Positions 1 to 15,930 are shown, counted from the stretch's first letter. The stretch is 16,478 bases of DNA from a virus (IMGVR_UViG_2802429235_000005:1-16478); one strand, 5' to 3'. Notes: generated by a model not told the origin, from the letters alone. Translations and numbers: made by a program.

Positions 1-792
1 ATGTCCTTAAATGGAGTCAGTGCTGCGATGCGTGAACGGGTATCGCAACAGTTAAAGGAAATTGAACGGCGGTATGGTGTGAAAGTGCTGTACGCCTGCG
101 AATCAGGGAGTCGCGGCTGGGGATTTGCTTCGCCAGACAGCGATTATGATGTGCGTTTTTTGTATGTTCATCCGCTGGAATGGTATCTGCGGGTGGAGTC
201 GCCGCGCGATGTTATCGAACTGCCCATCGACGACGAGTTGGATGTTTCAGGCTGGGAGTGGCGTAAGGCGCTGGGATTATTGAAAGGCGCGAACCCGACG
301 CTGATTGAATGGCTGGACTCACCGGTGGTCTATCAGCAAGACGAAGAAACGATAACGGCGCTAAAAGCAATGGTGCCAAAGTGGTTTTCTCCGCTACGTG
401 CGCGCTGGCATTATTATTCGATGGCACGGAAAAACTTTCGTGGTTATTTGCAGGGCGACGAAGTTCGGCTGAAAAAATACTTTTACGTACTGCGCCCGCT
501 ATTGGCTGTGCGCTGGGTCGAATCGGGTAAAGGTGTGCCGCCAATGCGCTTTGCCGAGCTACTGGCGGGAAGCGAACTTGATGCGCCGTTACGCGCAGAA
601 ATAGACGAATTGCTGGAACGTAAACAGCGCGCAGGAGAAGCGGAATATGGTCCGCGCTGTCCATTGCTACATGCGTTTATTCGTGCAGAACTGGCGCGTG
701 GAGAAATTCCACCGATGTTACCGGACAGCAGAGACGGAGATGTTCGGGAGCTAGATAATTTGCTGTATCAAACAGTAATGCGCCGGGCATAA
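1..792 (+). CDS. Predicted Pol-beta superfamily nucleotidyltransferase (COG3541/PF10127-like)
   Basis: 263-aa ORF starting at window position 1 (true start may lie here or upstream). N-terminal 'ESGSRGWGFASPDSDYDVRF' fits the G-S-x(9-13)-D-x-D nucleotidyltransferase signature. Stop TAA 790-792 sits in the loop of GC hairpin 781-801. Convergent to the tail operon. Confidence 0.65.
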   Translation: MSLNGVSAAMRERVSQQLKEIERRYGVKVLYACESGSRGWGFASPDSDYDVRFLYVHPLEWYLRVESPRDVIELPIDDELDVSGWEWRKALGLLKGANPTLIEWLDSPVVYQQDEETITALKAMVPKWFSPLRARWHYYSMARKNFRGYLQGDEVRLKKYFYVLRPLLAVRWVESGKGVPPMRFAELLAGSELDAPLRAEIDELLERKQRAGEAEYGPRCPLLHAFIRAELARGEIPPMLPDSRDGDVRELDNLLYQTVMRRA

Positions 793-801
793 AGCCCGGC
801 G
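781..801. terminator. GC-rich hairpin between convergent genes (8-bp perfect stem cgccgggc/gcccggcg, 5-nt loop); likely intrinsic terminator for the plus-strand gene
   Basis: Perfect inverted repeat 781-788/794-801 followed on the plus strand by tgatttatt (U-rich). Contains the stop codon of the 1-792 ORF. Lies just past the stop (808-806) of the last minus-strand gene. Confidence 0.55.
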
Positions 802-805
802 TGAT

Positions 806-1261
806 TTATTGCTGGTATTGCCAACTGCTGACTAAAGCGTACAAGTGGTTTGGAGAATAGCGCCAGCTTTCCTTCAGTTGCAGAAATTCAGCACAAAATT
901 CACTGCAAAACAGGCGATCGCGCTGTTCTTTATTACCGGTAATAATTCCTAATGCTCCGCGCCAGTCATATTTCTTGCCATCATGTTTACGGAAAAAAGT
1001 TTCCACATCCTGAAGGCTGGCCTGGAGCGGCAGCATATCCCACTTATCCGCTGGCAATGGCATTATCTTTCCGCGTACACCGCGATCGCGCAGTGATGCA
1101 GAGTAACAAAGGTAACTCTTTTCACCATGCGCCACGGCTAATTCACAGTGGGAATAACTACCGTGTGTGATTTTACGGGTAAGCCAGTCAGCCAGTCGGG
1201 CAATACCACGGTGCTCTGTTCGGCCCTTATAACAAGCGAGCCAGACAGTGGTTTTACTCAT
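806..1261 (-). CDS. Hypothetical cargo protein; possible permuted NlpC/P60-type (YaeF/YiiX-like) Cys/His hydrolase
   Basis: 151-aa ORF whose ATG (1261-1259) overlaps the TGA of the upstream fibre chaperone (ATGA coupling). Motifs 'GSYSHCELAV' (S-H) and 'LFCSEFCAEF' (C-S-E) occur in the His-then-Cys order seen in permuted papain-fold amidases. Family assignment is by eye only. Confidence 0.5.
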   Translation of the reverse strand: MSKTTVWLACYKGRTEHRGIARLADWLTRKITHGSYSHCELAVAHGEKSYLCYSASLRDRGVRGKIMPLPADKWDMLPLQASLQDVETFFRKHDGKKYDWRGALGIITGNKEQRDRLFCSEFCAEFLQLKESWRYSPNHLYALVSSWQYQQ

Positions 1262-1965
1262 GGTTGCCAGCCTGTGGAGTAATCGTAGTCGAGCACCGCC
1301 TGAATATCGTCCAGAGCTTCCACCGCCGCGATATGACGCTGGGCGTTGGCGAACAGGCGCATATCGTGATCCATTGTTACCGATTCAAACTGAGCGGCGA
1401 TTTCGTTGGTTAACTCAATCAGACCGTTATTTTTAGTTTTCCACATTAAACCTGGAAGGATTTTTTTCTCCGCTCCCATTTTAGTGAGCGAGAGCTGTTG
1501 GATACGGCTATTTGTATCACTGTGGAAATGATGGTTGTTGATGATGATGTAATCGGTTGTGATGGCATCGCGTTGATTTTTGATTGCAGAGTATTTCGCC
1601 TCTTTAGCATCAGTTATGGATGGTTGCCATTTTTCACCATCCCAACGTTCAAAAGAACCTGTTGGGGAAATGATGGTGACAGTTTCAGGTAATTGGCCCA
1701 ATTCTTGAGTAATAAGCTGGCTACCATCAACTTTGTTATAAACAGTTTGCCCGCGATGATCTTCAATGAGCTCCCATTTTTCATTCACCCAAACAGGAGT
1801 AAAACCTGAAACCTTTTCGGGTGGTGAATTTAATGTGCAATGATTTGGCAAACCTGTATTAGGTGCAATGTATGCATCAGACTCACCGATATATTCTTGG
1901 GTGTCTTGTGAAAAGTTATAAACAGTCAGTATTTGAGCTTCATCGGAAAATGTAAAAGTATTCAT
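1258..1965 (-). CDS. Tail fibre assembly chaperone (P2 gpG / Mu gpU functional analogue)
   Basis: 235-aa ORF immediately downstream of the tail fibre gene with ATGA overlap (fibre stop 1964-1962, ATG 1965-1963). Position and size are typical for a fibre chaperone. Sequence looks more AT-rich than the baseplate genes. Confidence 0.6.
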
Positions 1966-3542
1966 GCTAGCCTCACAATATAATTGAATGCGATATTTTT
2001 AACGGTGTTTTCGGTATTGCCGGTATTATTAATGGTTATAGAGTGGTTATGGGCCCCAAGTGCAATTGAATGTGAATGGGTGCCGAGAGTAACAGTGTGC
2101 GAATGGGAACCAATTGTAATACTATGAGCGTGTGATGGAACATTAATAGCCAAAGATGATCCGGTACCAGGGCCATATGATGTCCAGTCGCCTTGGCCCT
2201 CTGGTGAAGATGTCCCTGTTCTTACTGTTGCAGTTGCCGAGCCTGAGCCAGATGAACTTGTTTTTTTATTACCATAGTTAAATGCTGATGTAGTTTTAGT
2301 ACCCAAGTCTGTTAAAACTGTGGTTTTCGTCCCTAAATCAGTATTCGAAATACTACCCGTATGGTTGTGCGATTTAACCCCATCCAGTTCAGTAGATAAT
2401 ATATTACGCCCACTGCTGGGTTTCCCTTTAATTATCCATCCACGCATATCAGGAATAACGCCAGATGGATATGCAATTGCCAGTTTGGGATATGAGGCTT
2501 TATTAAATGTCTGACCTGTCATCAGGGCGTAGCCAGAAGGTACAGAATCAGACGGCCAGGGAATAGGCATCCCTACAGGACAGCTTTCCGCAGCAATAGC
2601 CTTATCCATCGCTGCCTTAACCGCATTTGGTGTTGCAGCTTCCGTCGTACTGGTGCTGTTGGTCGCATTATTAAGCTTCACGACCCCTTTTTGTGTCAGC
2701 GTACTGTCGGGGATACCTGTTATTTGCCCCCAGGCATGGGTATGGCTGGCAGGTGCCGCAGCATTGGCCTTATCCATTGCGGCCTTAACCGCACTTGGCG
2801 TTGCAGCTTCCGCCGTACTGGTGCTATTTGTCGTGTTGTTAAGTTTAACGATCCCTTTCTGCGTCAGCGTACCGTCAGGGATACCAGTAATCTGATTCCA
2901 GGCATGAGTATGACTAGTGGCGGCTTTACTATTTGCCAGGTCATATGCCGCTTTTACCGCTTTTGGCGTGGCCGCTTTGGTTTCATCATCGCTATTGGTC
3001 GCATTACTCAGCAGCGTAAAACCTTTCTGCGTCAGCGTCGCATCAGGATGATTCCGTGATTGTTGATGTTCTTTCAGCGTTTCATCGACATATTCTCTGG
3101 TTGCTATAACGACTGAAGGGTCGATCAAAAGCGTCACCGCGTCAGCATTGGTCACTTCCATAACTGCGCGAATAACAATTTGCTTACTGGCACCCGCAGG
3201 TAATAGCGGTTTATAGGTTTCCGGAAATTTGCCAATAGCAACTAGTGTGCCGTCAGCATCCAGTAGCCCAACCTCGCGGACGTACCAGCCACCTACTTGT
3301 TCAGGAATAATCGTCTCTGCGATAACCCAGGCTGGATTATCAGGCGCAATTTTTAAGGTATTTAGTTGCCCACGCCAGACTTCATGCACAACTTTGGTTT
3401 GACTTTCTGTCGGCTCGACATAATGACCATTGCCATCGCCGACCACCATAGTTTGTAGGCGGATCTGTTTTTGCTCCGCCAGCGCAGAGGCAATTTTTGA
3501 TTTGCCTGCGGTGGTTAATATTGTAAAAAATTCACTTGCCAT
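1962..3542 (-). CDS. Tail fibre protein (P2 gpH-like N-terminal anchor, central tandem repeats, C-terminal HxH-rich tip)
   Basis: 526 aa. N-terminus '[37 protein letters not shown]...EVWRGQL' resembles the conserved P2 gpH-type fibre N-terminus. Three ~56-aa tandem repeats ('TLTQKG..L.NATNS...AATP.AVKAA.D.A'). C-terminal '[35 protein letters not shown]'. Confidence 0.9.
2583..3044 (-). repeat. In-frame tandem repeats (about 168 nt, 2.75 copies) inside the tail fibre gene
   Basis: Protein residues 167-320 form three consecutive copies of the same motif. The same periodicity shows up in the antisense plus-strand ORF 2653-2895 ('[14 protein letters not shown] ... [15 protein letters not shown]'). 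Confidence 0.85.
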
Positions 3543-3544
3543 AC

Positions 3545-4261
3545 TTACTCCGGGTATACAGACATAATTTCGGTACTCCAGTATCCTGTGCCGACATGAA
3601 TCGGTTGGGATTGTGTAATGCGATCAGGTTGATACGGAAAGAGATTTATGTATTCCTCAACACAGTAACCTGTCGCTAAAAATAGTGTCGATGACTGCCA
3701 AATACTCTCCGCAATAGGGGGTAATACAGTAATAACCTCCCCACCCTGGATTGCGCTGCCAATAACTGGCATTTGACTTTGGTTAATAAGCCAGATGGTA
3801 ATGCTTTCAAGTTTTGAACGAACATTTTTATATTCGTGAATTAATGCGATAAGTGCATTAAATTCATCTTCATTTAATCCTTTTTCCTCTAGTGTAATAT
3901 CAACCTTAAAAAAATAAGCCTTCCCCCCATATTCAAACCATTCTGAAATAGTTCCTGGTAGCGAAAGTATTTCCAGCACCCGCCGTACCGCCCAAATCGT
4001 TCCTTTATATTTATGCAGCTCAATGGCTTGCTTAATTAACTCGCGCTTCTCCCGTTCATCAGTGGTAAATAACCAACCTTCCAGCCCCTGAACGTGAAAT
4101 TGTTCTGCAAGCGTAGGCAAAGCCGAAGCATCAACCAGGTCTACCAGATAAACCATCAACGCCGTCAGATCGAGTTGGGCAAAACGCTCGGCAGCGATAT
4201 TTGCCAGAGTTGAAAAACGCTCATCGCTGGCAAGCGGCGGTGGCGGCAGCAATTTATCCAT
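3545..4261 (-). CDS. Baseplate protein, P2 gpI-like (Mu gp48 position)
   Basis: Sits between the gpJ-like and fibre genes. Internal '[26 protein letters not shown]' block and C-terminal '...GGEVITVLP' match the gpI pattern. ORF track start 4276 is TTG; ATG at 4261 has a GGAG 6 nt upstream, so 4261 is preferred. Stop TAA 3547-3545. Confidence 0.7.
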
Positions 4262-5369
4262 CGCTGACTCCGGCAATCGTGACGTCTATCGCGGTGCATT
4301 CCGCCCACTCATGCGCCTGCAAAATACGTTTTGTAGGCATATTCAGCGCAACGTCATAAACACCATCGACTTGTAACACTTTGATTATCTGGTTTGGCAC
4401 AATGTCCTGTCCCAGATGTGTTTGGCGCTGTTGCGTCCAGAGGCTAATCGCTTTATGCGCCTCAGCCAGCGTTGTTTCCTGATCGGCGGTGGTAAACAGC
4501 GTGAGCTGCGCACGGATCTCATACGGCACCCTAACGGCGCATTTCGCACTTACTTTGTCGGTCAGCGGACGTTTTTTCTCCTTGCTAACCTCCAGTTCAA
4601 TTTGCGCGAGCAGTTCCACGCCCGGCAGACCATTCAGCGTTAGCGGGTAGATCTCCACGCAGCCTTCTGGTAATCCTTCGTCCGGCCCCAGTACCGCGAC
4701 GTCAATAATCGACTGGCTTACGGAAAGCGTATGAAAGCGGTAGGCACCATAGCTGCCCGCATTGCTGAAACTTTCCGGCGCCAGTTGGATCCGCTGGCGT
4801 AGTGCGTCATCGCTCTCTTCACCGCAGCCGCCGGTTGAGGCCGTCAGGTTGGTCACGCTGATATCGTAATAACCAATCCTGTCAACAAGGGCGCTAATCT
4901 GTGCAGGCTGCCAGCCATTGCCCGCTTCGCCTGTTGCCAGACTGGTGGCGGGAACGGCGATATGCAAACTTCCCGCCGGAATCAGAACATCTTCATCGGT
5001 AGCAAACATCACGCTGTCAGAGGCGCTGGCACGTGTTCCTTGTGGAATTAGAATGTTATTTCGATTCTTACTGGCTACCGAAAACTGCAACGTGGTTTTT
5101 GCCGGTTGTGCAGGTAAGCGGTGAACGCCCACCAGCTCACCTAAATAATCCAGCATTGGCGCGCGGGAATACGCGACCAGATTCTGTTTCGCCGCTTCCT
5201 GAATGGCGATGCGTACAAGGTTTTCACGATAGGCAAAAAGGTCAATCAGCAACCGCTCGGCCTGTGCCGGGTAGAGCTTTTTGCCGCTGGCATCTTCATA
5301 CTGCGCAATCATCTCGCTGGTAATTTGCGCAGGATCGCGGTCAATAAAATCGGGTTCGGCTATCGCCAT
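4254..5369 (-). CDS. Baseplate wedge protein, P2 gpJ-like (Baseplate_J family)
   Basis: 371 aa. ATG 5369 preceded by GGAGGTG. Overlaps the gpW end by 10 nt and the gpI start by 8 nt. Conserved gene order W-J-I. Confidence 0.8.
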   Translation of the reverse strand: MAIAEPDFIDRDPAQITSEMIAQYEDASGKKLYPAQAERLLIDLFAYRENLVRIAIQEAAKQNLVAYSRAPMLDYLGELVGVHRLPAQPAKTTLQFSVASKNRNNILIPQGTRASASDSVMFATDEDVLIPAGSLHIAVPATSLATGEAGNGWQPAQISALVDRIGYYDISVTNLTASTGGCGEESDDALRQRIQLAPESFSNAGSYGAYRFHTLSVSQSIIDVAVLGPDEGLPEGCVEIYPLTLNGLPGVELLAQIELEVSKEKKRPLTDKVSAKCAVRVPYEIRAQLTLFTTADQETTLAEAHKAISLWTQQRQTHLGQDIVPNQIIKVLQVDGVYDVALNMPTKRILQAHEWAECTAIDVTIAGVSDG

Positions 5370-5719
5370 AACACCTCCGTTGAGTTGATTACGCCGTCAG
5401 CGGCGCGCCATTGCACACGTAACGTCAGATGTTCCCCGTCGATTACCGGTGTCACCTTCAGCAACCGGCAGCGCGGTTCCCACTGGCGGATGGCCTCTAC
5501 CGACTCCCTTACCACATGCGGAATCGCCCGCTCGATGGGATAATCGATGTAGTGCCACAAGTTGCTGCCAAACAGCGGTCTGTGGGGATCACTGCCGCGC
5601 GGTGTGCGCAGAATGATGTGTATTGCCTGGTGAATATCATCCAGTCCGCAGACGTATTCTTCAGGCCGCTGCAAGGCTGGTTGCCAGTGCAGCGTAGAGG
5701 GGCGTGTTGTCGTGTTCAT
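5360..5719 (-). CDS. Baseplate protein, P2 gpW / T4 gp25-like
   Basis: 119-aa ORF directly upstream of the gpJ-like gene. Size and the 'LFGSNLWHYIDYP' region fit the gpW/gp25 family. Confidence 0.75.
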   Translation of the reverse strand: MNTTTRPSTLHWQPALQRPEEYVCGLDDIHQAIHIILRTPRGSDPHRPLFGSNLWHYIDYPIERAIPHVVRESVEAIRQWEPRCRLLKVTPVIDGEHLTLRVQWRAADGVINSTEVLWR

Positions 5720-5780
5720 GAGGGTATTTTCGCCCTGAACAGGCGGCGGGGATATTAAAGCGATTTAAAAAACTGATTGA

Positions 5781-5812
5781 TTAAAAAGAGAAAACCCGCC
5801 ATCAGGCGGGTT
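5781..5812 (-). terminator. Intrinsic terminator-like hairpin plus U-tract between the gpV-like and gpW-like genes
   Basis: Minus-strand RNA reads TGA-cguuu-AACCCGCC-ugau-GGCGGGUU-UUCUCUUUUUAA: 8-bp GC-rich stem (plus-strand 5793-5800/5805-5812), 4-nt loop, then a U-rich run. Confidence 0.55.
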
Positions 5813-5817
5813 AAACG

Positions 5818-6519
5818 TCAGTGTGAATGGTGGTTGGAGTTGCCACCGCTGTCCTGCAATGTGCCGCTGGCCTGAACGTTACCAATCACATTAACATTGC
5901 CAGTTATCGTGGCGGCGTTGCCGATGCCTCCACTTCCTGCCATGCCACCAAGCCAGGTGAGTTTTTTCATCACTGTGACGTTGCCGGTAAAGGTGCTCAT
6001 GGGCGCATCTACCGTCACTGCTGCCGCTTTAACATCGACCTTACTGGCTTCAATGCTGACATCGGTGGCTTTCACATCAACAGTGTCGGAAGTCACGGTG
6101 ACGTGTTGGGCTTTAACCTCAACGTTGGGCGATGTCAGGCTGGTACGGTCAATAACCTCAATCACGATTTTTTCGATGCCACCATTAATCGTAAGCTGGT
6201 GGGTGCTGCGGTCATATTCAAACGCTGCGCCATCAGAAAACTGGACATAGCGTTTGTCGCGCGATGCTACTGGCGCGGTATCTACCGTTGAATATACTGC
6301 GCCCAGCACCACGCCATCTTCACCGTTATCATCCAGCAGAACTTCCACCTGTTCGCCCATATCCGGTAGCCAGTAATCCTTATTGTCCTGAGAATTGCGC
6401 TGCAGCACCGCAAGCCAGTTACTCTTCAGATTGTCACACTCTGGTAGCGTGACCCGCACCCGAACGCTGGTTTCGTCAATATCGCTGATAATCCCCGTTT
6501 GCCGGGTTACTCCTTTCAT
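5818..6519 (-). CDS. Baseplate hub/spike protein, P2 gpV-like
   Basis: 233 aa. 'DYWLPDMGEQVEVLL' and 'QFSDGAAFEYD' match gpV-type motifs. Followed by V/T-rich beta-helix-like periodic repeats and a His-rich C-terminal tip 'NSNHHSH'. AGGAGG upstream of ATG 6519. Confidence 0.8.
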   Translation of the reverse strand: MKGVTRQTGIISDIDETSVRVRVTLPECDNLKSNWLAVLQRNSQDNKDYWLPDMGEQVEVLLDDNGEDGVVLGAVYSTVDTAPVASRDKRYVQFSDGAAFEYDRSTHQLTINGGIEKIVIEVIDRTSLTSPNVEVKAQHVTVTSDTVDVKATDVSIEASKVDVKAAAVTVDAPMSTFTGNVTVMKKLTWLGGMAGSGGIGNAATITGNVNVIGNVQASGTLQDSGGNSNHHSH

Positions 6520-6528
6520 ATTGCCTCC

Positions 6529-7569
6529 TTACTGGCTGGTCGCTGGCCCGCGTGAAACGTCGATTTCAGTGGTATAGCCGCTGCGCACAAAACTGTGAGT
6601 AGATTTATCAATCAGCCACTGACCGGAAAGCACACCAAAATCGGTTAGCTCGATTTTATTGCCTGCCGTCAGTTCCGGGCAGCCCATCATCCTGAGCGTT
6701 CCGGTTTGTTGATATTCGTTGTGGCTGTCGAGCGCGGCGTTGGCCTTTGCCTGCGCCGCGCCAACGTCCGGCGCCCGACTGTTCAGTTTCAGCGTGTCGG
6801 CACTGGTGCCGACTCCACGGGCAGACGGCTTTTGCTGGCTGTCGTGAGTGTAGATAACCAGTTCTTTTTTCTTACTATTTTGATGCTGTACGGTGGCGTT
6901 TTTGTAGATGCGGTTAATGGTATCTTTGAAGGTGAAATGCGAAACGTCTTTGCGGTCGATCTTTTTCACCGGCGCCAGGCAGCGCAGCGTGGGTAAATGC
7001 GAAAAAATCAGCTCTTTGGTGGTCACCTTTACCGCATAGCCATATTCGCTGGCCAGGCGCTTGAGAAATCCGACATCGGTTTCGCCGTACTGTGTCACCC
7101 GGTCAATCGTCAGCGGCTCGATTTTGCCCACCAGCGTCAGGCCGTGAGTTTGCGCGATACGGCTGGCGATGGCTGAAAGCGTTGTCTCTTCAAAGCCCTG
7201 ACTGTTACGGGTGCGCAGCGCCTGATTGACGGAAGTGGCGATGCCATCAATATTTACCGTGGAAGGTGGTGCTGAAATGTCAATTTTATCAATGATATAT
7301 TGACCACAATCGAGCAGTTTTTCCCCCTGATAACCTATGTGCAGCGCCAGCGTATCGCCTTTGCCGGGATACCACTCTTTTATCCAGCGTCCATCGGTGT
7401 CATCCAGTGTGATCGCGATGGTATCCGACTCGTTTTTAATACTGTCCTGGTAACTGATGCTGGTGACATAAGGCGTGATGTCATAAGTGATATCTTTATG
7501 CCCATACCACAGGGTAAAAATGGGCGCGAGCGTGGCAAAGACGCCGCCAGTTACGCTTATCTCAGCCAT
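6529..7569 (-). CDS. Tail protein, P2 gpD-like (late control D family)
   Basis: 346-aa ORF between the gpX-like and gpV-like genes. Start ATG 7569 overlaps the gpX-like end by 13 nt. Size and position fit gpD / Mu P. Confidence 0.75.
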   Translation of the reverse strand: MAEISVTGGVFATLAPIFTLWYGHKDITYDITPYVTSISYQDSIKNESDTIAITLDDTDGRWIKEWYPGKGDTLALHIGYQGEKLLDCGQYIIDKIDISAPPSTVNIDGIATSVNQALRTRNSQGFEETTLSAIASRIAQTHGLTLVGKIEPLTIDRVTQYGETDVGFLKRLASEYGYAVKVTTKELIFSHLPTLRCLAPVKKIDRKDVSHFTFKDTINRIYKNATVQHQNSKKKELVIYTHDSQQKPSARGVGTSADTLKLNSRAPDVGAAQAKANAALDSHNEYQQTGTLRMMGCPELTAGNKIELTDFGVLSGQWLIDKSTHSFVRSGYTTEIDVSRGPATSQ

Positions 7570-7766
7570 GGTGGGATCTCCGATACGGTCTTGTTGACGG
7601 TAATGACCGGAATAATGAGCTGAATACCGGCAGGCAGTACCGGATAAATGGCGACATGTGGATTGGCGGCGATAATGCGTTCATAAGCCAGTGCATCACC
7701 GTAGTAATGCCATGCCAGGTTATCCCAGCGTTCGCCGTCGGTGGTGATATGTTCAAGGTATCGCAT
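7557..7766 (-). CDS. Tail protein X, P2 gpX-like (LysM-like)
   Basis: 69 aa. 'TTDGERWDNLAWHYYGDALAYERIIAANPHV' follows the gpX pattern (G-D-x-LD ... YYG ... ANP). TAATG overlap with the upstream gene. Confidence 0.7.
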   Translation of the reverse strand: MRYLEHITTDGERWDNLAWHYYGDALAYERIIAANPHVAIYPVLPAGIQLIIPVITVNKTVSEIPPWLR

Positions 7767-8719
7767 TACCAGCTCCTCGTAATGGTCGCGGCAGCGAGCT
7801 GAGTCACTGCGGGAGTGGTTTGCTGTACCGTTGTACGCGCCTGCTCAACCAACGTTGTGGCTTTATCGAAAGTTGCTTCGGCGATGGCGCTGGTGATGCT
7901 GCCAAACAGTTCTTGTGCATGGTCAACCAGTGTCCCGGCGTCTTCGGCACAGTCGCGGATGCCCGGCATGTTACCCAGCAATGCTTTAATCTGCGCCGAC
8001 AACGCTTTTGGTAATCCTGCCAGCGTTTGCAGATCCATCGGCTGTTTAAACAGGGTTTCGATGGCATCAATAGTCTTTTTCAACGACTTAATTATCTTTT
8101 CACACTTTTCTTTTAACGCTTTGGCCTCTTTAATCAGTGCTTTGACCTTTGCCACTGTTTTTTTAATATCTTCAATGGATTGCGCCAGTTCATCGATCAT
8201 CTCTTTGGCTTTGCGCATACCTTCTTCAATGGCGTTCAATATCTGATCCAACCAGGACTCCACCTTGTCCGGAAAATCGCTCGCCTTTTCGTCAATATTA
8301 GGCTCCTGGGTGGTAATCGCCGGGGGCAGGAGTGGGTTTTTCGGATCGCCGGTATACTCCTGGAGCGACATTGTTCCGCTTTGGGCAATGACATTGCCCC
8401 AGGGATCGGTGTGCTGGTGAGTGGCGGTTAACTCTGTAATTACAAACCAGCCGCGATAATCACCGTTGCCAAACACCAGCGCCATTGCTTTGTGGGCAAG
8501 CATGGCTTCACGCAGTCGATTCAGCTCTGTTGTGGGTTGGCAAAACTGGCTGTGCAGGGAAAATTCCAGCGCCAGCATGTCCAGCTTATCGCCAATAAAC
8601 TGCACGCCAGGTTTGCCTTCAATACGGGCATGTGTGGCGTAATCCACGCCCATTGTGCTTTTAAAGCCGTCCCAGAATGTGACAACTTTAAATTCAATCT
8701 CACCTAAAACGGCATACAT
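7766..8719 (-). CDS. Tail protein, P2 gpU / Mu N (DNA-circularisation protein N-domain)-like, with coiled-coil-rich C-terminal half
   Basis: 317-aa ORF immediately after the tape-measure gene (TGATG overlap), the conserved position of gpU/N. The C-terminal half is heptad-like and K/E/A-rich ('KAKEMIDELAQSIEDIKKTVAKVKALIKEAKALKEKCEKIIKSLKK'). Confidence 0.5.
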   Translation of the reverse strand: MYAVLGEIEFKVVTFWDGFKSTMGVDYATHARIEGKPGVQFIGDKLDMLALEFSLHSQFCQPTTELNRLREAMLAHKAMALVFGNGDYRGWFVITELTATHQHTDPWGNVIAQSGTMSLQEYTGDPKNPLLPPAITTQEPNIDEKASDFPDKVESWLDQILNAIEEGMRKAKEMIDELAQSIEDIKKTVAKVKALIKEAKALKEKCEKIIKSLKKTIDAIETLFKQPMDLQTLAGLPKALSAQIKALLGNMPGIRDCAEDAGTLVDHAQELFGSITSAIAEATFDKATTLVEQARTTVQQTTPAVTQLAAATITRSW

Positions 8720-11079
8720 CAGGCATACCCCCGGCGCTGTTGCTGCGCCATTACGTCGTTAATCATTCTTTCCAGTTCGCGTTTACTCATCGTCAATACG
8801 TTCTGAATGTCTTTAGTGGTGTTTTGTCCGTTACCCTGCACGGTAATTTGTGGCGAAAAATTCACCTGGACTTTTCCTGGGGAACGGGAGGGTAGCGTCG
8901 CCGGTTTGGTTACGGATTTACCTGATAAAGAGGCCGACGCGGGTTTTGCCACTGGCGCCGATGACGGCGTTGTCGTTTTGCTGGATGGCGCGAGTTGTTT
9001 GCCCACTGGAGGCGTTAAAAGCGCACCGGCAACGCCTGGAACAACGGTCGCGGGGGAGACTGATGCGGTATTAGTCGTGCCTGTAACAGTCGCAGCCGAT
9101 GCTTCTGTGCCGATCCCCATTGTGGCTTTTAGCCAGTCTGGCATGGCGTTTTTGACCTGATCAATAATGCCTTTCAGAGCGGGGAAAGCATTCATTATGC
9201 CGTCGGCCAGGCTAGCCAGTATATTGCTGCCGAACTCGCTAAAACTCGCAGGCATCTCAACACCAAACCAATTCATCACACCGGAAAAGGCGCTGTAGAA
9301 CAGCCCCAGTGGCGACCAGTCGAGAATCAACCGGCTAATACCTGCAATGCCACCGTCAAAGGCCGTGGTAATACGTTTCCAGATGGCGGAAAAGAACCTG
9401 GTGATAGGTTCCCAGTTGCGATAAATCAGATAAGCCGCGCCCGCAATCGCAGTGATGACCAGACCAATGGGATTCATCAGTAGCACCCGGCCTAGTGAGA
9501 GAACGGTTCGACCAACCAGTTTCAATGCTCCGATCAGGCCACGACCAAGCAGTTGCGTTAGCCATTTTGCGCCGCCACCCAATGACTTAACCGCCAATAG
9601 CACCTTACTCGCTGCGCCTCCGGGCGCCAGACTTGCCCTGACTTTCAGGAAGATATCGACCAGACGAATAAACGGCGAGGCGATGAAGTTCGCGCCCAGC
9701 TTTAAAACATTCAGCGCGCCGTTAAACAGCCAAATCGCCCCGACGATTTTCGCAATGTTTTGCACCAGCGCCGGATGTTCGCGTAGCCAGGCGCTGAACT
9801 GGCGAATAACCGGCGCAAGGCTTTGCGCCAGCTCGCCAATCGCCGGCATAAGTTGTAAGCCAATGCTGAGCCATAAATCATTTAACGCCAGTTGTAACGC
9901 TTTAGTCTGTTCAATGGGCGAAGCCATTTGCGCAGAAAAGTCGGCATCAATCAGATTCTTGCTGGTGGCTTGCATGGCAGAGGCTTTTAGCTGGCGATAC
10001 TCTTCCATGTTCGCCAGCATAGGGGCCAGGAATTCCACCGTTTGTGCATCGCCGAACATTTCGTCCAGATTAAACTGCGTCACCATCGATTGCAGCGCAG
10101 TGCTGCGGGCAGATAAATCTTCAATCTGCATGGTGCGTTTGAAGGTATCGAGGATCGCCGGATTCATCTTCTCAAGCTGCATTTGCACGATATGAGTCAT
10201 GGCTTCGCTAACACCCATACCGTTTTGCTGATGCTCAAGCAGAGAACCTTGCAGATCGACGCCCTGGCTGGCGAACCAGCTATCGGTTTTTTTCGAAAAG
10301 GTGGTTTGCAGAAAATGGTCGAAATTCTCCGCCGCTGTACTGGCGCTGGCACCGTTTTTCATGGCGATCTGCATGGTGGCGGTCAGTTCAGCCATACCTT
10401 CCAGACCCTGAGTGCCGGTTTTACCTGCAAATTTCTCTATCCACTGCGTTTGTTCGGCAATGGCAGGCCCACCGCTTTTGGTCACGCTGTACATCATGTT
10501 TTGCGCGGCGTTGAAATTTTCCGGGGCAATATTCAGTCGATCATGAGTCGCGAGCGCGGCTTTCGCCCATGTTTCGGCGCTGTCGCGCGTGGCGGTGGCG
10601 GCTTTGGCGATCTCCGGCATATAGCGGTTGAGATCCTGCAAGGACGATACATTGCCTTCAACTAAGGTCAGAGCGGCGGACTGTAACGTGGTCTGCTGCT
10701 GGTTAAAATCCATACTCCAGTCGCGCAGATTCAGGCTGAGCGTCTCGCGAGTGGCATCACTCATCCCACCTTTGGCCGCCATATTGACCATATTGTCCTG
10801 AAACTCATACGGTAACTTCCAGTCGGGGGCTTCAACATTGAATACTTTGCTAAATTGCCCGGCAAATGTTTGGGTTTTCTCCATCAGATTAGCGCGGCTG
10901 CGGCTATTTTCCTCCAGGCGGAGAGCGGAATCGGCAAGTCGCTGCGTTAGTTTGATAACTGTCGCTTGCTGAGTAGAGAGAGTTAACAATGTTCTGGCGT
11001 TGAGTGAGCCGTAACGGGCTATTGCCTGCGTCAACGTCTCATTACGCGCCTGAAGCTGGGTAATAATATCGTTGGCCAA
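8719..11079 (-). CDS. Tail tape measure protein
   Basis: 786 aa, the largest ORF, between chaperone and U-like genes. Internal hydrophobic segments and a P/S/T/A-rich low-complexity region near the C-terminus. Apparent TTG start at 11079 preceded by AAAGAGAAA; an in-frame TAA lies 5 codons upstream, so the ORF cannot extend further 5'. Confidence 0.85.
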   Translation of the reverse strand: MANDIITQLQARNETLTQAIARYGSLNARTLLTLSTQQATVIKLTQRLADSALRLEENSRSRANLMEKTQTFAGQFSKVFNVEAPDWKLPYEFQDNMVNMAAKGGMSDATRETLSLNLRDWSMDFNQQQTTLQSAALTLVEGNVSSLQDLNRYMPEIAKAATATRDSAETWAKAALATHDRLNIAPENFNAAQNMMYSVTKSGGPAIAEQTQWIEKFAGKTGTQGLEGMAELTATMQIAMKNGASASTAAENFDHFLQTTFSKKTDSWFASQGVDLQGSLLEHQQNGMGVSEAMTHIVQMQLEKMNPAILDTFKRTMQIEDLSARSTALQSMVTQFNLDEMFGDAQTVEFLAPMLANMEEYRQLKASAMQATSKNLIDADFSAQMASPIEQTKALQLALNDLWLSIGLQLMPAIGELAQSLAPVIRQFSAWLREHPALVQNIAKIVGAIWLFNGALNVLKLGANFIASPFIRLVDIFLKVRASLAPGGAASKVLLAVKSLGGGAKWLTQLLGRGLIGALKLVGRTVLSLGRVLLMNPIGLVITAIAGAAYLIYRNWEPITRFFSAIWKRITTAFDGGIAGISRLILDWSPLGLFYSAFSGVMNWFGVEMPASFSEFGSNILASLADGIMNAFPALKGIIDQVKNAMPDWLKATMGIGTEASAATVTGTTNTASVSPATVVPGVAGALLTPPVGKQLAPSSKTTTPSSAPVAKPASASLSGKSVTKPATLPSRSPGKVQVNFSPQITVQGNGQNTTKDIQNVLTMSKRELERMINDVMAQQQRRGYA

Positions 11080-11171
11080 AATTGTTTCTCTTTAAATATT
11101 GATAATGGCCCGCTGGTTATTTTTCTAAAAAAAAGGGGCAGGGAAGAAATAAACCTGACGGGCTTGGAAAA

Positions 11172-11194
11172 CTCGCAGACATCAGGTCTGCGAG
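11172..11194 (-). promoter_or_regulatory. 9-bp-stem hairpin in the chaperone / tape-measure intergenic region
   Basis: Plus strand ctcgcagac-atcag-gtctgcgag. On the minus strand it is followed by UUUUCC (weak U-tract). It contains the stop of a +1-frame ORF that overlaps the chaperone gene end. Confidence 0.35.
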
Positions 11195-11269
11195 TCATAT
11201 TCGATTTTTATTTGGGCGTTGGCTTCATCCAGCCAGTTGCTAAAGTCATCGACGGTAAGGGCGTCTATC

Positions 11270-11587
11270 TCACTGGGCGGAAAGCGAAACCATCTTGCCA
11301 GTAACGCCATCGCTTGCCATAACAGTGGCAGATTCTGTAGCCACGCTAAGCATGGATTGAAATCGTTTCTGCAATGCCTGGTAATCCAGCAAATCCATTT
11401 CAGCTAAATCTTCTGGCACCAGTCCGGTCATTGCAGCCATTAGCGGTTCATCCCATTCTTCTGGTTTTTCGCTGATCCGGCGCGCGTTGCGCATATCTTT
11501 TACTTTCAGGCGACGTAATTGCAGAGTGTTAATTACGTCTCCCGCCGCTGAAGTAAACGGGAACTGTAAGGTATAATGTTCTTTCAT
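11270..11587 (-). CDS. Tail assembly chaperone (P2 gpE-like position)
   Basis: 105-aa ORF between the tube and tape-measure genes. AGGA 7 nt upstream of ATG 11587. Position is the conserved chaperone slot; no canonical -1 slippery heptamer found. Confidence 0.5.
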   Translation of the reverse strand: MKEHYTLQFPFTSAAGDVINTLQLRRLKVKDMRNARRISEKPEEWDEPLMAAMTGLVPEDLAEMDLLDYQALQKRFQSMLSVATESATVMASDGVTGKMVSLSAQ

Positions 11588-11615
11588 TTTGTATCCTTAT
11601 TGGTCATGCGGAAAT

Positions 11616-11631
11616 CGGGGCCGTAGCCCCG
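11616..11631 (-). promoter_or_regulatory. GC hairpin between the tube and chaperone genes (possible attenuator)
   Basis: cggggc-cgta-gccccg, a 6-bp perfect GC stem with 4-nt loop, 7 nt after the tube stop and not followed by a strong U-tract. Confidence 0.4.
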
Positions 11632-11637
11632 AATAAC

Positions 11638-12162
11638 TTAGCCACCGATGTTATTGCGATAGGTACTTAATTGATCCACGCCGTTAACGCGGAAAATATT
11701 CGCCAGGTAATCCAGTTCCAGTAGTGTTTCACCATCGACCACCTGTTTAATATAGGTACAACCAAAGGCGCTGCTGAATTCCGGGTTTTCATTCTGTTTA
11801 AATGTTCCCAATGGATTCTTTTTAAACATAACAGTCAAATGAGTGACTAACGCTAATTGATTCGCTTTCCCCTGGGAGTTATAGCAATCAATACTGGAGC
11901 GGCACTGTAATGCTACCGCCTGCCACGGGTTTGCCGTTTTACGCATGACGTCCTGATAAAAGGAGTTCCATTTAATTTCCCCTTCCAGTTTATCGAAACC
12001 TGCCGGGAGTTCGATTTTGCCGACCATGCCCAGTGCTTTATGCTCCTGCATAATTAAACTGACATCCGGTAATTTAATTTCGGTTGCACGACCTAAAAGG
12101 TTATTACCATCGAGATAAATATTGGCATTGGTAATACGGTTAATTTGAATTTTTCCAGCCAT
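11638..12162 (-). CDS. Tail tube protein (P2 FII-like)
   Basis: 174 aa. N-terminal 'IYLDGNNLLGRATEIKLP' and C-terminal 'VDGETLLELDYLANIFRVNGVDQL' match the FII tube pattern. TAATG overlap with the sheath gene. Confidence 0.8.
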   Translation of the reverse strand: MAGKIQINRITNANIYLDGNNLLGRATEIKLPDVSLIMQEHKALGMVGKIELPAGFDKLEGEIKWNSFYQDVMRKTANPWQAVALQCRSSIDCYNSQGKANQLALVTHLTVMFKKNPLGTFKQNENPEFSSAFGCTYIKQVVDGETLLELDYLANIFRVNGVDQLSTYRNNIGG

Positions 12163-13586
12163 TAGCTATTGCTCTCCAGAGAGACTAAATATTCAGAGGT
12201 AATTTCAGTTTCAAACGTCAGACGTTCCAGCGGCGGTGGCGGGGTGAATTTATAGCTCAGCAATAAATGCCCGGCACTGAGTTCGGTCGGTGAATTTCGC
12301 GCCGGATCGTACCAGCACTCAAAGCCAAGCAGTGCGCCGTCGGCAATCAGCTTACGGCCCCAGGTATTTACCGACTCGGTCAGGGCATCAATTAGCGCCT
12401 GATTAATCGGCATATCGATATACTGCTGGCTGAAATAACGGATCGACTCGTTAATCACATCACCCGTGCGGCGAACGTTTTCAAAGTTACGCATATGGGT
12501 CACGGTTGGCCATGCCGCAGTGCGGTTGCCCCATAAACGCAGACCAGAGCCGTAACTATTGAAAACTGTGGTAATGCCGTTTTCGTTGAGCTGATTCACT
12601 TCACTTTGCGGGTCATCAACCATTGCGGAAAGTGAACGTTCGATACCGATAATGCCCTGAATTTCCTGGTTTGAGTTGCTCCACCAGAAACCTTTCTCCA
12701 GGTCTACTTTGGCACGCAGTCCGGCAGCGCGTGAAGAGAGCGGTTCGAGAACTTCCTGGTTGGTTGCGCCGTCATAAACTTTGACGTGCGGATAGCACAA
12801 ACGCGCACGGTCAGAACTGGTGTTGAAGTTGATTGCGCCTTTCGAGCCGCGACCAGCCAGCACCTGCTGGAATGTAGTACCGATTGGGGCGTCAATGTAG
12901 GCGATAGCACCGAGTTTTTCCGCCTGAGCAATCAGTTCGGTGGTGACCGATTTTTGCGTACAGAAAACGGGAGCAAGCAGGATTTTGGCGTAGAAACCAT
13001 ACAGGTTATAGGTATCCTGTAGCAGTTTCATCCCAGTGCGATCGCCTGCGGTATTAACGGCGCCAATAATATCGGCTGCGGTAACTTTTGTTGGATCGGC
13101 CCATGAGTAATAGGCACAAACTTTCGCTCCGGCAGGGATCTCAGTCTCTGCACGAGTGATTATTCCTGTTTGTTCATCAACATGAAACGCTGTGCTGCTA
13201 TACGTAGTGGCTGATGTTGAAGAGGGTTTCAGGACGACATTACGCACCGCACGATGAGCCAGTTTTGCCTGGTTGTTGGAATCAAAAGTGATACTCTCAT
13301 TGCTGATGCTGGAGCCATGTTTTGCCGGATCCAGTACGTTAATCACCACCACCGTACCGGCGCCGTGGTCATAAATCGCCTTCAGCGCCTGCGGGATAGT
13401 AAAGTTAGCCTGAGTCGAGCCAAACTGCGCGGCATCGCTTTCAGAAAGGCACAATGTTGGTTTGTTTACCGGACCGCATGGTGCACTACCGATTAAAGCG
13501 ATTACAGCGGATTTTACCGCTTTAACCGGGCGCGGACCGGTTTCAATTTCAATGGTTTCTACACCGTGCAGGTAATTAGCTGCCAT
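12162..13586 (-). CDS. Contractile tail sheath protein (P2 FI / Mu L-like)
   Basis: 474-aa ORF directly upstream of the tube gene. ATG at 13586 preceded by AGAGGAAA; the ORF-track start 13592 is a TTG two codons earlier. Confidence 0.85.
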   Translation of the reverse strand: MAANYLHGVETIEIETGPRPVKAVKSAVIALIGSAPCGPVNKPTLCLSESDAAQFGSTQANFTIPQALKAIYDHGAGTVVVINVLDPAKHGSSISNESITFDSNNQAKLAHRAVRNVVLKPSSTSATTYSSTAFHVDEQTGIITRAETEIPAGAKVCAYYSWADPTKVTAADIIGAVNTAGDRTGMKLLQDTYNLYGFYAKILLAPVFCTQKSVTTELIAQAEKLGAIAYIDAPIGTTFQQVLAGRGSKGAINFNTSSDRARLCYPHVKVYDGATNQEVLEPLSSRAAGLRAKVDLEKGFWWSNSNQEIQGIIGIERSLSAMVDDPQSEVNQLNENGITTVFNSYGSGLRLWGNRTAAWPTVTHMRNFENVRRTGDVINESIRYFSQQYIDMPINQALIDALTESVNTWGRKLIADGALLGFECWYDPARNSPTELSAGHLLLSYKFTPPPPLERLTFETEITSEYLVSLESNS

Positions 13587-13773
13587 GTACAATTTCCTCT
13601 CCGTTATTTTGTTCTTCCTGAGTGATGACAGGAGTCAGGTGATTGCGGGCAATCATGGTCATAACCCACTCGTTTTCTTCTGGCAGATCAATTTCACTGT
13701 TCGGCCACAATAAGATTTCTTGTCCGTCGGCAAGGGTGACGCCGCTTGCCGGGCCGTTGTAGATGTATTTCAT
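13576..13773 (-). CDS. Small conserved-position protein (Mu gp38-like slot), function unknown
   Basis: 65-aa ORF. ATGA overlap with the upstream gene and 11-nt overlap with the sheath start, so it is translationally coupled on both sides. Confidence 0.5.
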   Translation of the reverse strand: MKYIYNGPASGVTLADGQEILLWPNSEIDLPEENEWVMTMIARNHLTPVITQEEQNNGEEIVHGS

Positions 13774-14225
13774 TCAGTTTCCTCGTAATTAACTTCAGTA
13801 AGCAGGGTAAGGTCCGTGCTTTCCCGTTTTGCGATAAACAGCGATCTGGTCGCCATTTCCAGGATGTAGCGGCAGAAACCACCGCTCTCGCCTGCATTGA
13901 TTTCTGTTTCAAGCCAAAGAAGACGCTCGCAATCAGGAAGCTGGATCCCCCCCAATGCGCTGCGTATGCGATCCAGTGCGTTTAACGCGCCACAATTTTT
14001 GCCAACAATAACGGTGGCAGTTAAACGGAGCGTTTGCTGTTGCACGAGGGCATCACTGCTTTCAGGCATGGCAAATAGAGAACCGCTATAATTAATAATC
14101 ACTGTAACTTTCTGCGTCTGCGGAATATATTTATTGGCATCAACCGATGAAATAAATACGTCCATTTCGGGATTCTGTTCACGTAATCTGGTCACAACAG
14201 AATTAATTACAGATAAAATTTCCAT
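13770..14225 (-). CDS. Tail-associated protein (Mu gp37-like slot), possibly tail completion/terminator
   Basis: 151-aa ORF, first gene after the lysis-cassette terminator. AAGGAA 8 nt upstream of ATG 14225. Function inferred from position only. Confidence 0.5.
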   Translation of the reverse strand: MEILSVINSVVTRLREQNPEMDVFISSVDANKYIPQTQKVTVIINYSGSLFAMPESSDALVQQQTLRLTATVIVGKNCGALNALDRIRSALGGIQLPDCERLLWLETEINAGESGGFCRYILEMATRSLFIAKRESTDLTLLTEVNYEETE

Positions 14226-14330
14226 ATAGGGTGTTCCTTAATTACTGCTCACTTCGTTATCGTTGAAATGTATTCTGAAGCAGTGAAGGTGAAGAATCTT
14301 TTAATGTGATTTAGAGAAAAAATTGAATGG

Positions 14331-14366
14331 CTATAAAAATCCCCACACTTACGTAAAGGTGGGGAT
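14331..14366 (-). terminator. Intrinsic terminator after the lysis cassette
   Basis: Minus-strand RNA has stem AUCCCCAC / GUGGGGAU (plus-strand 14339-14346 / 14359-14366) with an internally palindromic loop, followed by UUUUUAU. Begins about 5 nt after the spanin-like stop. Confidence 0.6.
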
Positions 14367-14370
14367 GTAT

Positions 14371-14685
14371 TTAATAGCTGCCACGTTGTAATAGCTCTAT
14401 TTTGCTATATAAGGCATCCAGCTTTGCTTCTAATACTGCCTGGCCACGAAGATAATCTTCTCTGCGGACATAATGCAGCGGAAGCTCGGCACGAAATTCG
14501 AGAAATTCTCTTTCCAGTTTCGACCAGCTTGTTTCTGATTCCCGGCGCGCGTTTTCCAGAGATTCAAAACGCTCATTAAGTCTTTTTTCAATTTGCGCTA
14601 ACAGCAATTTTCCGGCAGCAAACATTAATCCAACGAAGGAAAGCATAAGGGAGATCACTTCCCAAAAATCGATACTGAGTTTCAT
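14371..14685 (-). CDS. Lysis accessory protein, Rz-like i-spanin candidate (N-terminal TM helix plus coiled coil)
   Basis: 104 aa. 'VISLMLSFVGLMFAAG' transmembrane segment followed by a charged heptad-rich region. Immediately downstream of the lysozyme gene; GAGGGG upstream of the ATG. Confidence 0.45.
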   Translation of the reverse strand: MKLSIDFWEVISLMLSFVGLMFAAGKLLLAQIEKRLNERFESLENARRESETSWSKLEREFLEFRAELPLHYVRREDYLRGQAVLEAKLDALYSKIELLQRGSY

Positions 14686-14697
14686 CGGCCCCTCTGA

Positions 14698-15303
14698 TTA
14701 GTGAAGACAGCTTGCCTGCCCCCAGAGTAAGTAGCGGGCGGCATGTTGATAGAGGATCATCTTCGGATAGTGACGATTTTCTCGCCAGTTTGCGGCACTA
14801 CGCCCGGCGTTGACGTGCTCAACATGACCAAACCAGATGGTGGCATCTAACCCTTTGGATGCGGCCAGTTTTTTATCCCGATTAACCCATCCCTGACCAC
14901 CGTTATAGGCGCTTAGGGTAAACGCCATACGCTGGCAGCCATTTTTCGCCGAGATGTTTTTCCACAAATGCTGGTCATATTGCACCAATGCGCGAATCGC
15001 CCAGGTTGGGTTATAGGGCTTGTTTTCACGTAGCTGTGGATACAACTGGCTTATCCATGTCGCTGTGGCAGGCATAAATTGCGCCATACCCTGTGCGCCG
15101 ACGGGGGAACGCGCCATTGGCTGCCAGGCTGATTCCTGGTGCAACTGCCCGGCGAAGTCTGCCACCGGGGCGTTCAGTCCCCAGACTTCTCGTGCAGTTC
15201 GAATCAGTTCGTTTCGCCATGCCAGAGATGCTCGCGGCGGTTCAGATGCGTTAAGCGGGAAGAACGCGAACAGAGTAATTAGCGCGAGAAATTTTACCTG
15301 CAT
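14698..15303 (-). CDS. Lytic transglycosylase (SLT family) with N-terminal signal sequence; endolysin candidate
   Basis: 'QESAWQPMARSPVGAQGMAQFMPATA' matches the SLT catalytic motif (E-S ... G-A-x-G-x-M-Q-x-M-P-x-T-A) and 'LSAYNGG' the AYNxG motif. N-terminus 'MQVKFLALITLFAFFPLNA/SE' from ATG 15303 (AGGA 7 nt upstream). The ORF-track 5' extension to 15402 is rejected. Confidence 0.8.
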   Translation of the reverse strand: MQVKFLALITLFAFFPLNASEPPRASLAWRNELIRTAREVWGLNAPVADFAGQLHQESAWQPMARSPVGAQGMAQFMPATATWISQLYPQLRENKPYNPTWAIRALVQYDQHLWKNISAKNGCQRMAFTLSAYNGGQGWVNRDKKLAASKGLDATIWFGHVEHVNAGRSAANWRENRHYPKMILYQHAARYLLWGQASCLH

Positions 15304-15305
15304 CA

Positions 15306-15593
15306 CTAAAGTCCTAACGCGACGGAAAGGCAGACGGCTGCAACGATGATAGCCCGACGAATCATTGCCGCCGCGCAGCATCGCGCCTCTTCCCAGGGGC
15401 AAAATGAGTCAGGCCGCGCCCAGGGAAACAGACTGCGATCGAGCCAGTATCCCAGCACAGCGGCGAGCGAAACCAGACTTAGTTTATAAATGACAACCGG
15501 GATCTGTGCGGAAGATGTACAGCCGATCGCGACAAACAGCGCGACGGAAGCGACCAGCCAGCCGGAAAGACGGGGAAAAGTGACTTTTTTCAT
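15306..15593 (-). CDS. Holin-like small membrane protein
   Basis: 95-aa ORF with AGGAG 7 nt upstream of ATG 15593. Two or three hydrophobic segments. Immediately precedes the lysozyme gene (stop TAG 15308-15306, lysozyme ATG 15303). Confidence 0.5.
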   Translation of the reverse strand: MKKVTFPRLSGWLVASVALFVAIGCTSSAQIPVVIYKLSLVSLAAVLGYWLDRSLFPWARPDSFCPWEEARCCAAAMIRRAIIVAAVCLSVALGL

Positions 15594-15889
15594 ACGATAT
15601 CTCCTGATAAGTGAGCGTTTAGTGTCGCCAGATCCCTCCAGTGAAGAATGAAAAAAGCTTTAATAAATAACTTTAAAAAATAGATCCTCTATAAATGAAC
15701 ATGCTTGCTAATAAATCCACCCATTAATAAAAGAGCAAAAGGTGTCCTGGAGAATAAGCGCGTCATTATGCAGGGAAAAGAGGATGGTGAATCGTAGGAA
15801 TAGCCCATAGTCATTTGATTTTTAAAGTTTGTTTAAGAAAGTCAGCGACTGTGAGGGAAACGATCTTTTTACACTACAGGTAAAAATAA

Positions 15890-15909
15890 TACTGTATGCA
15901 CATACAGTA
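15890..15909. promoter_or_regulatory. LexA (SOS) operator, near-consensus
   Basis: TACTGTATGCACATACAGTA: CTGT-N8-ACAG palindrome matching the enterobacterial consensus TACTGTATATATATACAGTA at about 17/20 positions. Located in the divergent control region. Confidence 0.7.
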
Positions 15910-15930
15910 TCGTGTAAAATGATACTCCAG

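Follow-up and report, generated by a model that had tools for sequence, protein, structure and literature searches.

The gene studied here is the last one in a tail operon on a 16,478-nucleotide stretch of viral DNA (IMGVR_UViG_2802429235_000005:1-16478), which is called the window in what follows. An open reading frame (ORF) reading of the window places it on the minus strand at 806..1261, with a product of 151 amino acids (aa), behind the genes for a tail fibre and for the tail-fibre assembly chaperone Tfa. The product is very probably a member of the permuted NlpC/P60 papain-like superfamily, with the YaeF/YiiX proteins as its nearest relatives, and is referred to below as the enzyme. The gene and the features around it are listed in Table 1.

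The enzyme gene begins within the stop codon of tfa. The four bases at 1258-1261 are tcat on the plus strand and so spell ATGA on the minus strand, and the ATG of the enzyme gene (1261-1259) shares bases with the TGA stop (1260-1258) of the tfa ORF 1258..1965. That ORF is matched in Pfam by DUF4376 (E 1.7e-13) and Caudo_TAP (E 2.3e-6). A promoter scan found no sigma-70-like promoter between tfa and the enzyme gene or inside tfa, and the GC content of the enzyme gene (0.48, vs 0.43-0.47 in tfa and fibre) shows no compositional deviation. Judging from this arrangement, the enzyme appears to be translated from the late tail mRNA, without a promoter of its own. Its gene is the last of the operon: its stop is followed by a hairpin, and the neighbour on that side (1-792, plus strand) is a host gene that runs convergently and matches the RlaP family (RNA-repair-pathway Pol-beta nucleotidyltransferase, E 1.4e-97). 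Both the overlap with the chaperone stop and the position at the operon end had been claimed in a preliminary description of this DNA. Both are present, and the start-at-stop arrangement is conserved over the family.

The ratio of non-synonymous to synonymous substitution (dN/dS) of the enzyme gene is 0.03-0.2 when compared with orthologues from the same type of cluster (75-98% amino-acid identity). This is a genuine gene that evolves under purifying selection.

The hairpin past the enzyme gene resembles a single bidirectional terminator serving both the enzyme operon and the RlaP unit.

Table 1. Features at the end of the tail operon, predicted catalytic codons and the one plus-strand gene of the cluster
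Feature	Position	Strand	Remarks
Terminator-like GC-rich hairpin, 10-bp stem, operon end	779..803	both strands scanned	3 nt past the enzyme stop; overlaps the RlaP stop (convergent gene)
Enzyme gene, 151 aa, predicted permuted NlpC/P60 (YiiX-like) with Cys/His/Tyr	806..1261	-	ORF; PHROG 1128; profile and structure matches to YiiX and 3kw0
Cys119 codon, predicted nucleophile, start of helix 119-126	905..907	-	invariant; pairs with YiiX Cys128 and ICSEF of 3kw0
Tyr98 codon, predicted oxyanion/P1-carbonyl Tyr typical of NlpC/P60	968..970	-	invariant; pairs with YiiX Tyr115
His38 codon, predicted catalytic His	1148..1150	-	invariant; pairs with YiiX His49 and SH of 3kw0
ATGA overlap of enzyme start and tfa stop	1258..1261	-	junction of the termination-reinitiation type, preceded by just a weak AGG
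Tail-fibre assembly chaperone Tfa, 235 aa, Caudo_TAP-like N-part and DUF4376 C-part	1258..1965	-	Pfam and PHROG tail-fibre assembly families
526-aa tail fibre gene, leading the fibre-chaperone-enzyme trio	1962..3542	-	Pfam Phage_tail_fib (E 9e-59), Phage_fiber_2, Collar
Mor activator	16131-16478	+	remaining cluster genes on the minus strand

Fold and active site of the predicted enzyme

The enzyme carries the motifs Y36-S37-H38-C39-E40 and F118-C119-S120-E121, with the His ahead of the Cys. The preliminary description had pointed out the S-H and C-S-E motifs (S37-H38 and C119-S120-E121 in the protein), and these are not there by chance, since H38 and C119 are invariant. In an alignment of 41 homologues, Y36, S37, H38, C39 and E40 are invariant together with C119 and S120, and in 80 diverse representatives, where the mean column identity is 28%, the sole invariant residues are H38, W74, Y98 and C119. 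His38, Cys119 and Tyr98 make up the invariant predicted catalytic set. The role of the NlpC/P60 tyrosine in holding the P1 carbonyl has been described (PMC3142127).

A family profile was needed for the fold assignment because the single-sequence scans against Pfam, NCBIfam and PADLOC gave no significant match. Pfam has no match for the window protein at E<=1, PADLOC has no family at E<=0.1, and the NCBIfam YiiX model NF007458 scores a sub-threshold 11.1 bits (E 0.2) against a cut-off of 216; PF05708 (Peptidase_C92) is matched by only 1 of the 41 homologues, at E 0.073. With a profile of those 41 homologues, hmmsearch against the PDB finds the YiiX-like protein of B. cereus, 3kw0, at E 9.6e-5, with both motifs in register (YSHCE/FSHTG and FCSEF/ICSEF). 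The 80-sequence family alignment was also compared with a YiiX family alignment in hhalign, which gave a probability of 95.5% and an E-value of 1.4e-8 for residues 25-132 against YiiX 36-145, and paired H38, Y98 and C119 with H49, Y115 and C128 of YiiX. All three belong to the set of four catalytic residues listed for YiiX by Xu et al. 2011 (PMC3142127).

The AlphaFold2 model of the enzyme (predicted local distance difference test score, pLDDT, 81.8; predicted template modelling score, pTM, 0.81) has strand beta1 from residue 6 and a helix at residues 119-126. The papain-like alpha+beta core is found in it, with an N-terminal beta-sheet that holds the His and with the Cys at a helix N-terminus, and an aB-like helix (residues 20-32) aligns with YiiX in hhalign. 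The nearest viral models in BFVD are uncharacterised phage proteins and one protein labelled 'YaeF/YiiX C92 family'. The permuted NlpC/P60 order and fold of YaeF/YiiX type, as suggested in the preliminary description, are thus borne out by the match to 3kw0 and by hhalign, and the profile and structure comparison that it proposed clearly yields a papain-like fold with conserved His and Cys positions. The term amidase used there names just one of several chemistries of this fold, along with phospholipase and acyl-transferase.

The position of the triad Glu64 of YiiX and BcPPNE falls on Ser54 in hhalign or on position 55, Ser or Ala, in hmmsearch, and is not conserved as Glu; the near-invariant candidates for a third triad residue in the 80-sequence alignment are E40, S54, S56 and D59. 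S37 and D59 match Ser48 and Asp68 of BcPPNE, two residues of its Lys-binding S1' site. The enzyme (17.6 kDa) is basic (pI 9.2) and soluble, with a maximum 19-residue hydropathy of 0.34, and hydropathy over the 151 aa shows neither a signal peptide nor a transmembrane segment.

The circularly permuted papain-like core, with His before Cys, is common to the enzyme and the YaeF/YiiX family (PF05708), represented by E. coli YiiX (PDB 2if6) and B. cereus BcPPNE (PDB 3kw0), and 3kw0 and the enzyme also share an 'xSH' strand, a 'D-G-V-R' turn and an 'xCSE' helix start. YiiX, however, has ~200 aa against ~150 in the enzyme, and ~50 C-terminal YiiX residues (helices and a strand) have no counterpart. 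The YiiX alignment shows a hydrophobic leader, whereas the enzyme has no signal peptide. The gene setting differs too: yiiX is a chromosomal gene between rpmE and metJ (opposite strand), whereas the enzyme gene is a tfa-linked phage or tailocin gene. The lipid-acting permuted NlpC/P60 proteins LRAT/PLAAT (7zot), TseH (6v98) and Tox-Act1 (both T6SS effectors), MARTX RID (5xn7), CLN5 and S. aureus LnsA are more distant from the enzyme than YiiX; this group consists of secreted toxins or membrane-anchored proteins, often with an immunity partner, whereas the enzyme is predicted to be cytoplasmic, has no partner gene and lies inside a structural operon. Poxvirus G6R and the picornavirus 2A H-box/NC proteins (Aichivirus 2A, 7zv6) are eukaryotic-virus proteins from an unrelated context, with much lower similarity to the enzyme.

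The family is large, with 4,275 clusters at 50% identity (E<=1e-3). Of the best 150 representatives, nearly all have a single domain and a length of 132-187 aa, and in a domain-fusion check the longer members were mostly start-codon artefacts or small extensions. Prophages of Mu-like, P2-like and siphovirus type have members, as does a head-less tail cluster of E. coli and related enterobacteria. The family fails the PF05708 and NF007458 thresholds, is shorter, has no leader, does not conserve the triad Glu, and is of considerable size. We therefore regard it as a separate, un-named family within the permuted NlpC/P60 group; it lacks a Pfam model of its own, and its nearest neighbour is YiiX.

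One 254-aa member has a C-terminal extension of ~120 aa that holds an HExxH-type motif (AHEHVHCEQQ), and going by this motif it may be a permuted papain-like domain fused to a metallopeptidase-like module.

The enzyme matches PHROG 1128 strongly (E 7.8e-58); that family carries the label 'enoyl-CoA hydratase/carnithine racemase-like' and is placed in the category 'moron, auxiliary metabolic gene and host takeover'. The enoyl-CoA hydratase/crotonase name was rejected: there is no Pfam ECH match, the fold is papain-like, and the label is merely inherited annotation. The crotonase label also stands on NCBI records such as SuMu gp51 and Pm86 ORF70.

The junction with Tfa across loci

The place of the enzyme gene was compared over two sets of loci. 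One holds 83 loci (IMG/VR and four annotated records), and the other holds 71 loci with an upstream ORF from species-representative genomes and metagenome contigs, covering Enterobacterales, Pasteurellaceae, Neisseriaceae, Moraxellaceae, Pseudomonas and some alpha- and beta-proteobacteria. In the IMG/VR set the enzyme gene starts -11 to +3 nt from the upstream stop at 78 of the 83 loci, the exact 4-nt ATGA overlap is present at 46, and the upstream ORF has ~155-295 aa. The start lies -11 to +7 nt from the upstream stop at 61 of the 71 loci in the genome-representative set, and when both sets are joined ~90% of the 154 loci start -11 to +7 nt from the upstream ORF.

The upstream ORF is a homologue of the window Tfa at 131 of the 154 loci according to an iterative hidden Markov model search, and Pfam confirmed DUF4376 or Caudo_TAP in 6 of 10 upstream representatives. 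The C-terminal domain of these Tfa proteins is DUF4376-like in 79 and of other helical types in 51, and the junction sequences vary too. Because both the domain types and the junction sequences differ, the start-at-stop junction seems to have been kept or re-created with varied partners. This strongly conserved link between the enzyme and Tfa is unreported, and the enzyme was previously unrecognised; no study of the enzyme gene was found in the literature on the gene, DUF4376 or E. coli tailocins.

Annotated phages show the same arrangement. The order in SuMu is fibre, Tfa, the homologue gp51 and then com, and Pm86 and Mcat7 have a homologue in the same position after Tfa. In pAN and AP1 a Tfa-like gene is followed by the homologue and then by lysis genes. 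Distant homologues were also found inside fibre modules, and at a P2-like locus the homologue lies between the fibre genes and the sheath gene. The virion proteomics paper on SuMu makes no mention of gp51 (PMC3447690).

Tfa is a mosaic: strains have exchanged its N-terminal two thirds (14-16% identity over the first third), whereas the last third, the end of DUF4376, is 95-97% identical together with the enzyme across the enterobacterial cluster strains. The swapped N-part and the conserved last third place a recombination boundary inside tfa, and they put the enzyme in the conserved backbone and not in the host-range cassette.

Avibacterium paragallinarum NCTC11296 has four Tfa-enzyme pairs with the same coordinates, identity and E-value, and presumably these four copies sit in multiple related prophages. 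The enzyme ORFs there are shorter and lower-scoring (118 bits) than at other loci.

A candidate role in the fibre module and its alternatives

In the mechanism proposed here, Cys119, activated by His38, would attack an ester or amide carbonyl held by Tyr98, and the enzyme would work as a cytoplasmic thiol acyl-hydrolase or acyl-transferase by way of a Cys acyl-thioester. By analogy with YiiX, LRAT/PLAAT, Tox-Act1, RID and LnsA, the acyl group would most likely be a fatty acyl group, which would next go either to water (hydrolase) or to an amine as acceptor (transferase). In the characterised permuted NlpC/P60 enzymes the Cys acyl-thioester arises from fatty-acyl esters or amides, and its acyl group is hydrolysed off or handed on to an amine or alcohol. 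RID is an N-epsilon-acylating enzyme for lysines, and LnsA has a part in the N-acylation of lipoproteins. A fatty acid is present in the crystal structure of YiiX, and free Lys is bound by BcPPNE via Ser48, His49 and Asp68 (PMC3142127); Tox-Act1 is a phospholipase, and LRAT/PLAAT proteins are acyl-transferases or phospholipases (PMC12994826).

The enzyme may act on the fibre-Tfa tip complex or travel with it, either processing or modifying the tip or conditioning the envelope that the tip meets, and it would be an optional accessory enzyme of the fibre module and not a moron of benefit to the lysogen. A fibre-module accessory is proposed because the enzyme is apparently made together with Tfa, solely in tail-building cells. 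The lasting linkage to a Tfa gene in Entero-, Pasteurella-, Neisseria-, Moraxella- and Pseudomonas-type phages points the same way, as does retention in the head-less tail cluster: among 5426 complete E. coli genomes the sheath gene is present in 196, and the enzyme gene (at least 80% coverage), always intact and annotated 'hypothetical protein', is likewise present in 196, two equal counts taken separately and not necessarily of the same genomes. A benefit to the lysogen fits poorly with a late operon that adjoins a lysis cassette, since only cells committed to lysis would make the protein. Taken as a whole, the statement that this is a permuted YiiX-like thiol acyl-enzyme, coupled to Tfa and accessory to the fibre module, comes just short of an even chance of being right, and the fibre-module role on its own is put forward tentatively, with the odds leaning somewhat against it. 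A sharper version makes the enzyme a dedicated modifier of the receptor-binding tip, in which the Cys119 thioester would add or remove a fatty acyl group at a lysine or the N-terminus of fibre-Tfa; this version is decidedly unlikely. If it were true, some phages and tailocins would bear a lipid-modified or enzymatically matured tip with altered engagement of the outer membrane, and it would be a first instance of a tail-fibre module with its own enzyme-catalysed acyl modification.

Several observations weigh against a fibre-module enzyme of this kind. Of the 154 phage records with a related Tfa, just 2 are also among the enzyme matches listed, which implies that the enzyme is dispensable for Tfa function generally and is an accessory, not a universal assembly factor. 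The Ralstonia jumbo phage FLC1-1B encodes a distant homologue, gp184 (32% identity), that stands alone: the closest gene upstream of it lies on the other strand and there is no tfa in its vicinity, so the family can exist outside fibre modules. The end of a late operon is a generic landing site for accessory genes too. The non-conserved position of the YiiX triad Glu, described above, belongs here as well.

Part of this evidence suits the view, already raised in the preliminary description, that the gene is not a tail gene but a moron or immunity factor: a tail-unrelated gene that landed at a permissive operon end and benefits the host through defence, immunity, superinfection exclusion or virulence. 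The gene is optional, as the 2 of 154 records indicate, the jumbo-phage copy stands alone, PHROG files the family with morons, and the homologue at the P2-like locus, between fibre genes and sheath gene, lies where P2 carries its Z/fun moron. The Z/fun-type morons of P2 are placed like the enzyme gene, at or directly behind the end of the fibre/chaperone genes; the enzyme gene differs from them in that it has no promoter/terminator cassette of its own, overlaps the preceding stop with its start and does not deviate in composition. A cargo gene would also have to be squared with the neighbour-like GC content, with the missing promoter, with the 4-nt overlap with tfa, and with an overlap or close abutment that is kept across several Tfa C-terminal domain types. 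PADLOC gave no match, the next gene is the convergent host gene with no adjacent immunity or partner gene, and with late lytic operon expression the protein would be made by dying cells only. A toxin-immunity pair was rejected for want of a partner or immunity gene beside the enzyme gene. With no promoter, GC deviation or PADLOC match, and with purifying selection and the Tfa linkage, the cargo view of the preliminary description is left unsupported though unrefuted, and we regard it as unlikely.

Other readings were weighed as well. The enzyme could be a late lipid hydrolase for lysis or release that weakens the inner membrane or alters envelope lipids or lipoproteins, and thereby aids the burst or cuts re-adsorption of progeny to debris. 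The permuted NlpC/P60 group includes true phospholipases (Tox-Act1; PMC12994826), the homologue directly precedes the lysis genes in pAN and AP1, and late expression would limit toxicity; but the lysis cassette of the window (holin and transglycosylase) is at the opposite end of the cluster, ~13 kb off, the conserved partner is tfa and not a lysis gene, and there is no membrane-targeting segment, which makes this reading quite unlikely. The match of Ser37 and Asp59 to two residues of the Lys-binding S1' site would suit a counter-defence isopeptidase that frees tail or fibre proteins, while they are being assembled, of a host-attached modifier (e.g. a ubiquitin-like protein or another acyl-lysine adduct), as would co-expression with the fibre proteins and optional presence, which is usual for anti-defence genes. 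However, the enzyme is far closer to the lipid-binding YiiX than to PPPDE, PADLOC shows no link to a defence system, and retention in a chromosomal tailocin would be hard to explain because a host would not attack its own particle, so that an isopeptidase is very improbable. Other phage tails carry cell-wall hydrolases, and membership in the NlpC/P60 superfamily brings up its canonical function, here a particle-borne peptidoglycan amidase or endopeptidase that helps the tail to penetrate. This is extremely improbable: the topology is permuted and the characterised members act on lipids and not on peptidoglycan peptides (PMC3142127, PMC12994826), the cluster already has a lytic transglycosylase, and the gene lies beside the fibre chaperone gene and not beside the spike or tape measure genes.

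The preferred reading, an accessory acyl-enzyme of the fibre module, would extend how such modules are seen. Tail-fibre modules are viewed as a fibre and a chaperone, and here a recurrent third component, predicted to be enzymatic, starts at the stop codon of the chaperone. An enzyme that modified the fibre tip, or the envelope in contact with it, would affect host range and adsorption, which would be relevant to the engineering of tailocins and phages with swapped fibre/chaperone cassettes. The locus also offers a simple genetic context in which a physiological substrate of a YiiX-type protein could be found.

The tail cluster around the gene

The window is ~94% identical to its best E. coli match, a head-less contractile-tail cluster. 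The cluster encodes a Mor activator; a holin, a lytic transglycosylase and a membrane protein; sheath, tube and tape measure; baseplate V/W/J/I; and fibre, Tfa and the enzyme. It is complete within the window (806-16478), and its insertion site in E. coli, where strain FDAARGOS_1268 is one of the carriers, lies between slipin/RlaP and lysC. Because of this head-less contractile-tail gene set and its place between slipin/RlaP and lysC, the cluster is a candidate R-type tailocin. IMG/VR contigs of ~15-18 kb hold the cluster with enzyme orthologues down to 75% identity. A description of this head-less tail cluster was not found in the literature on E. coli tailocins; the ST131 tailocin (PMC9205054) and kosakonicin (PMC6629978) are R2-pyocin/P2-related clusters, and are apparently other than the present one.

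A slipin-family gene and the RlaP gene directly adjoin the tail cluster, the slipin gene being seen in the best E. coli match. RlaP has no match in PADLOC.

The C-terminus of the fibre, at ~2030-2135 (minus strand) in ORF 1962-3542, contains a run of HxH repeats and in this resembles the HxH needle that binds metal in T4 gp37-type fibre tips. A stretch of ~190 nt (11079-11270, minus strand) with no ORF of at least 90 aa separates the ORF of the tail assembly chaperone (11270-11587) from that of the tape measure (8719-11079). This interval between chaperone and tape measure is the usual place of the -1 frameshift extension of the tail assembly chaperone.
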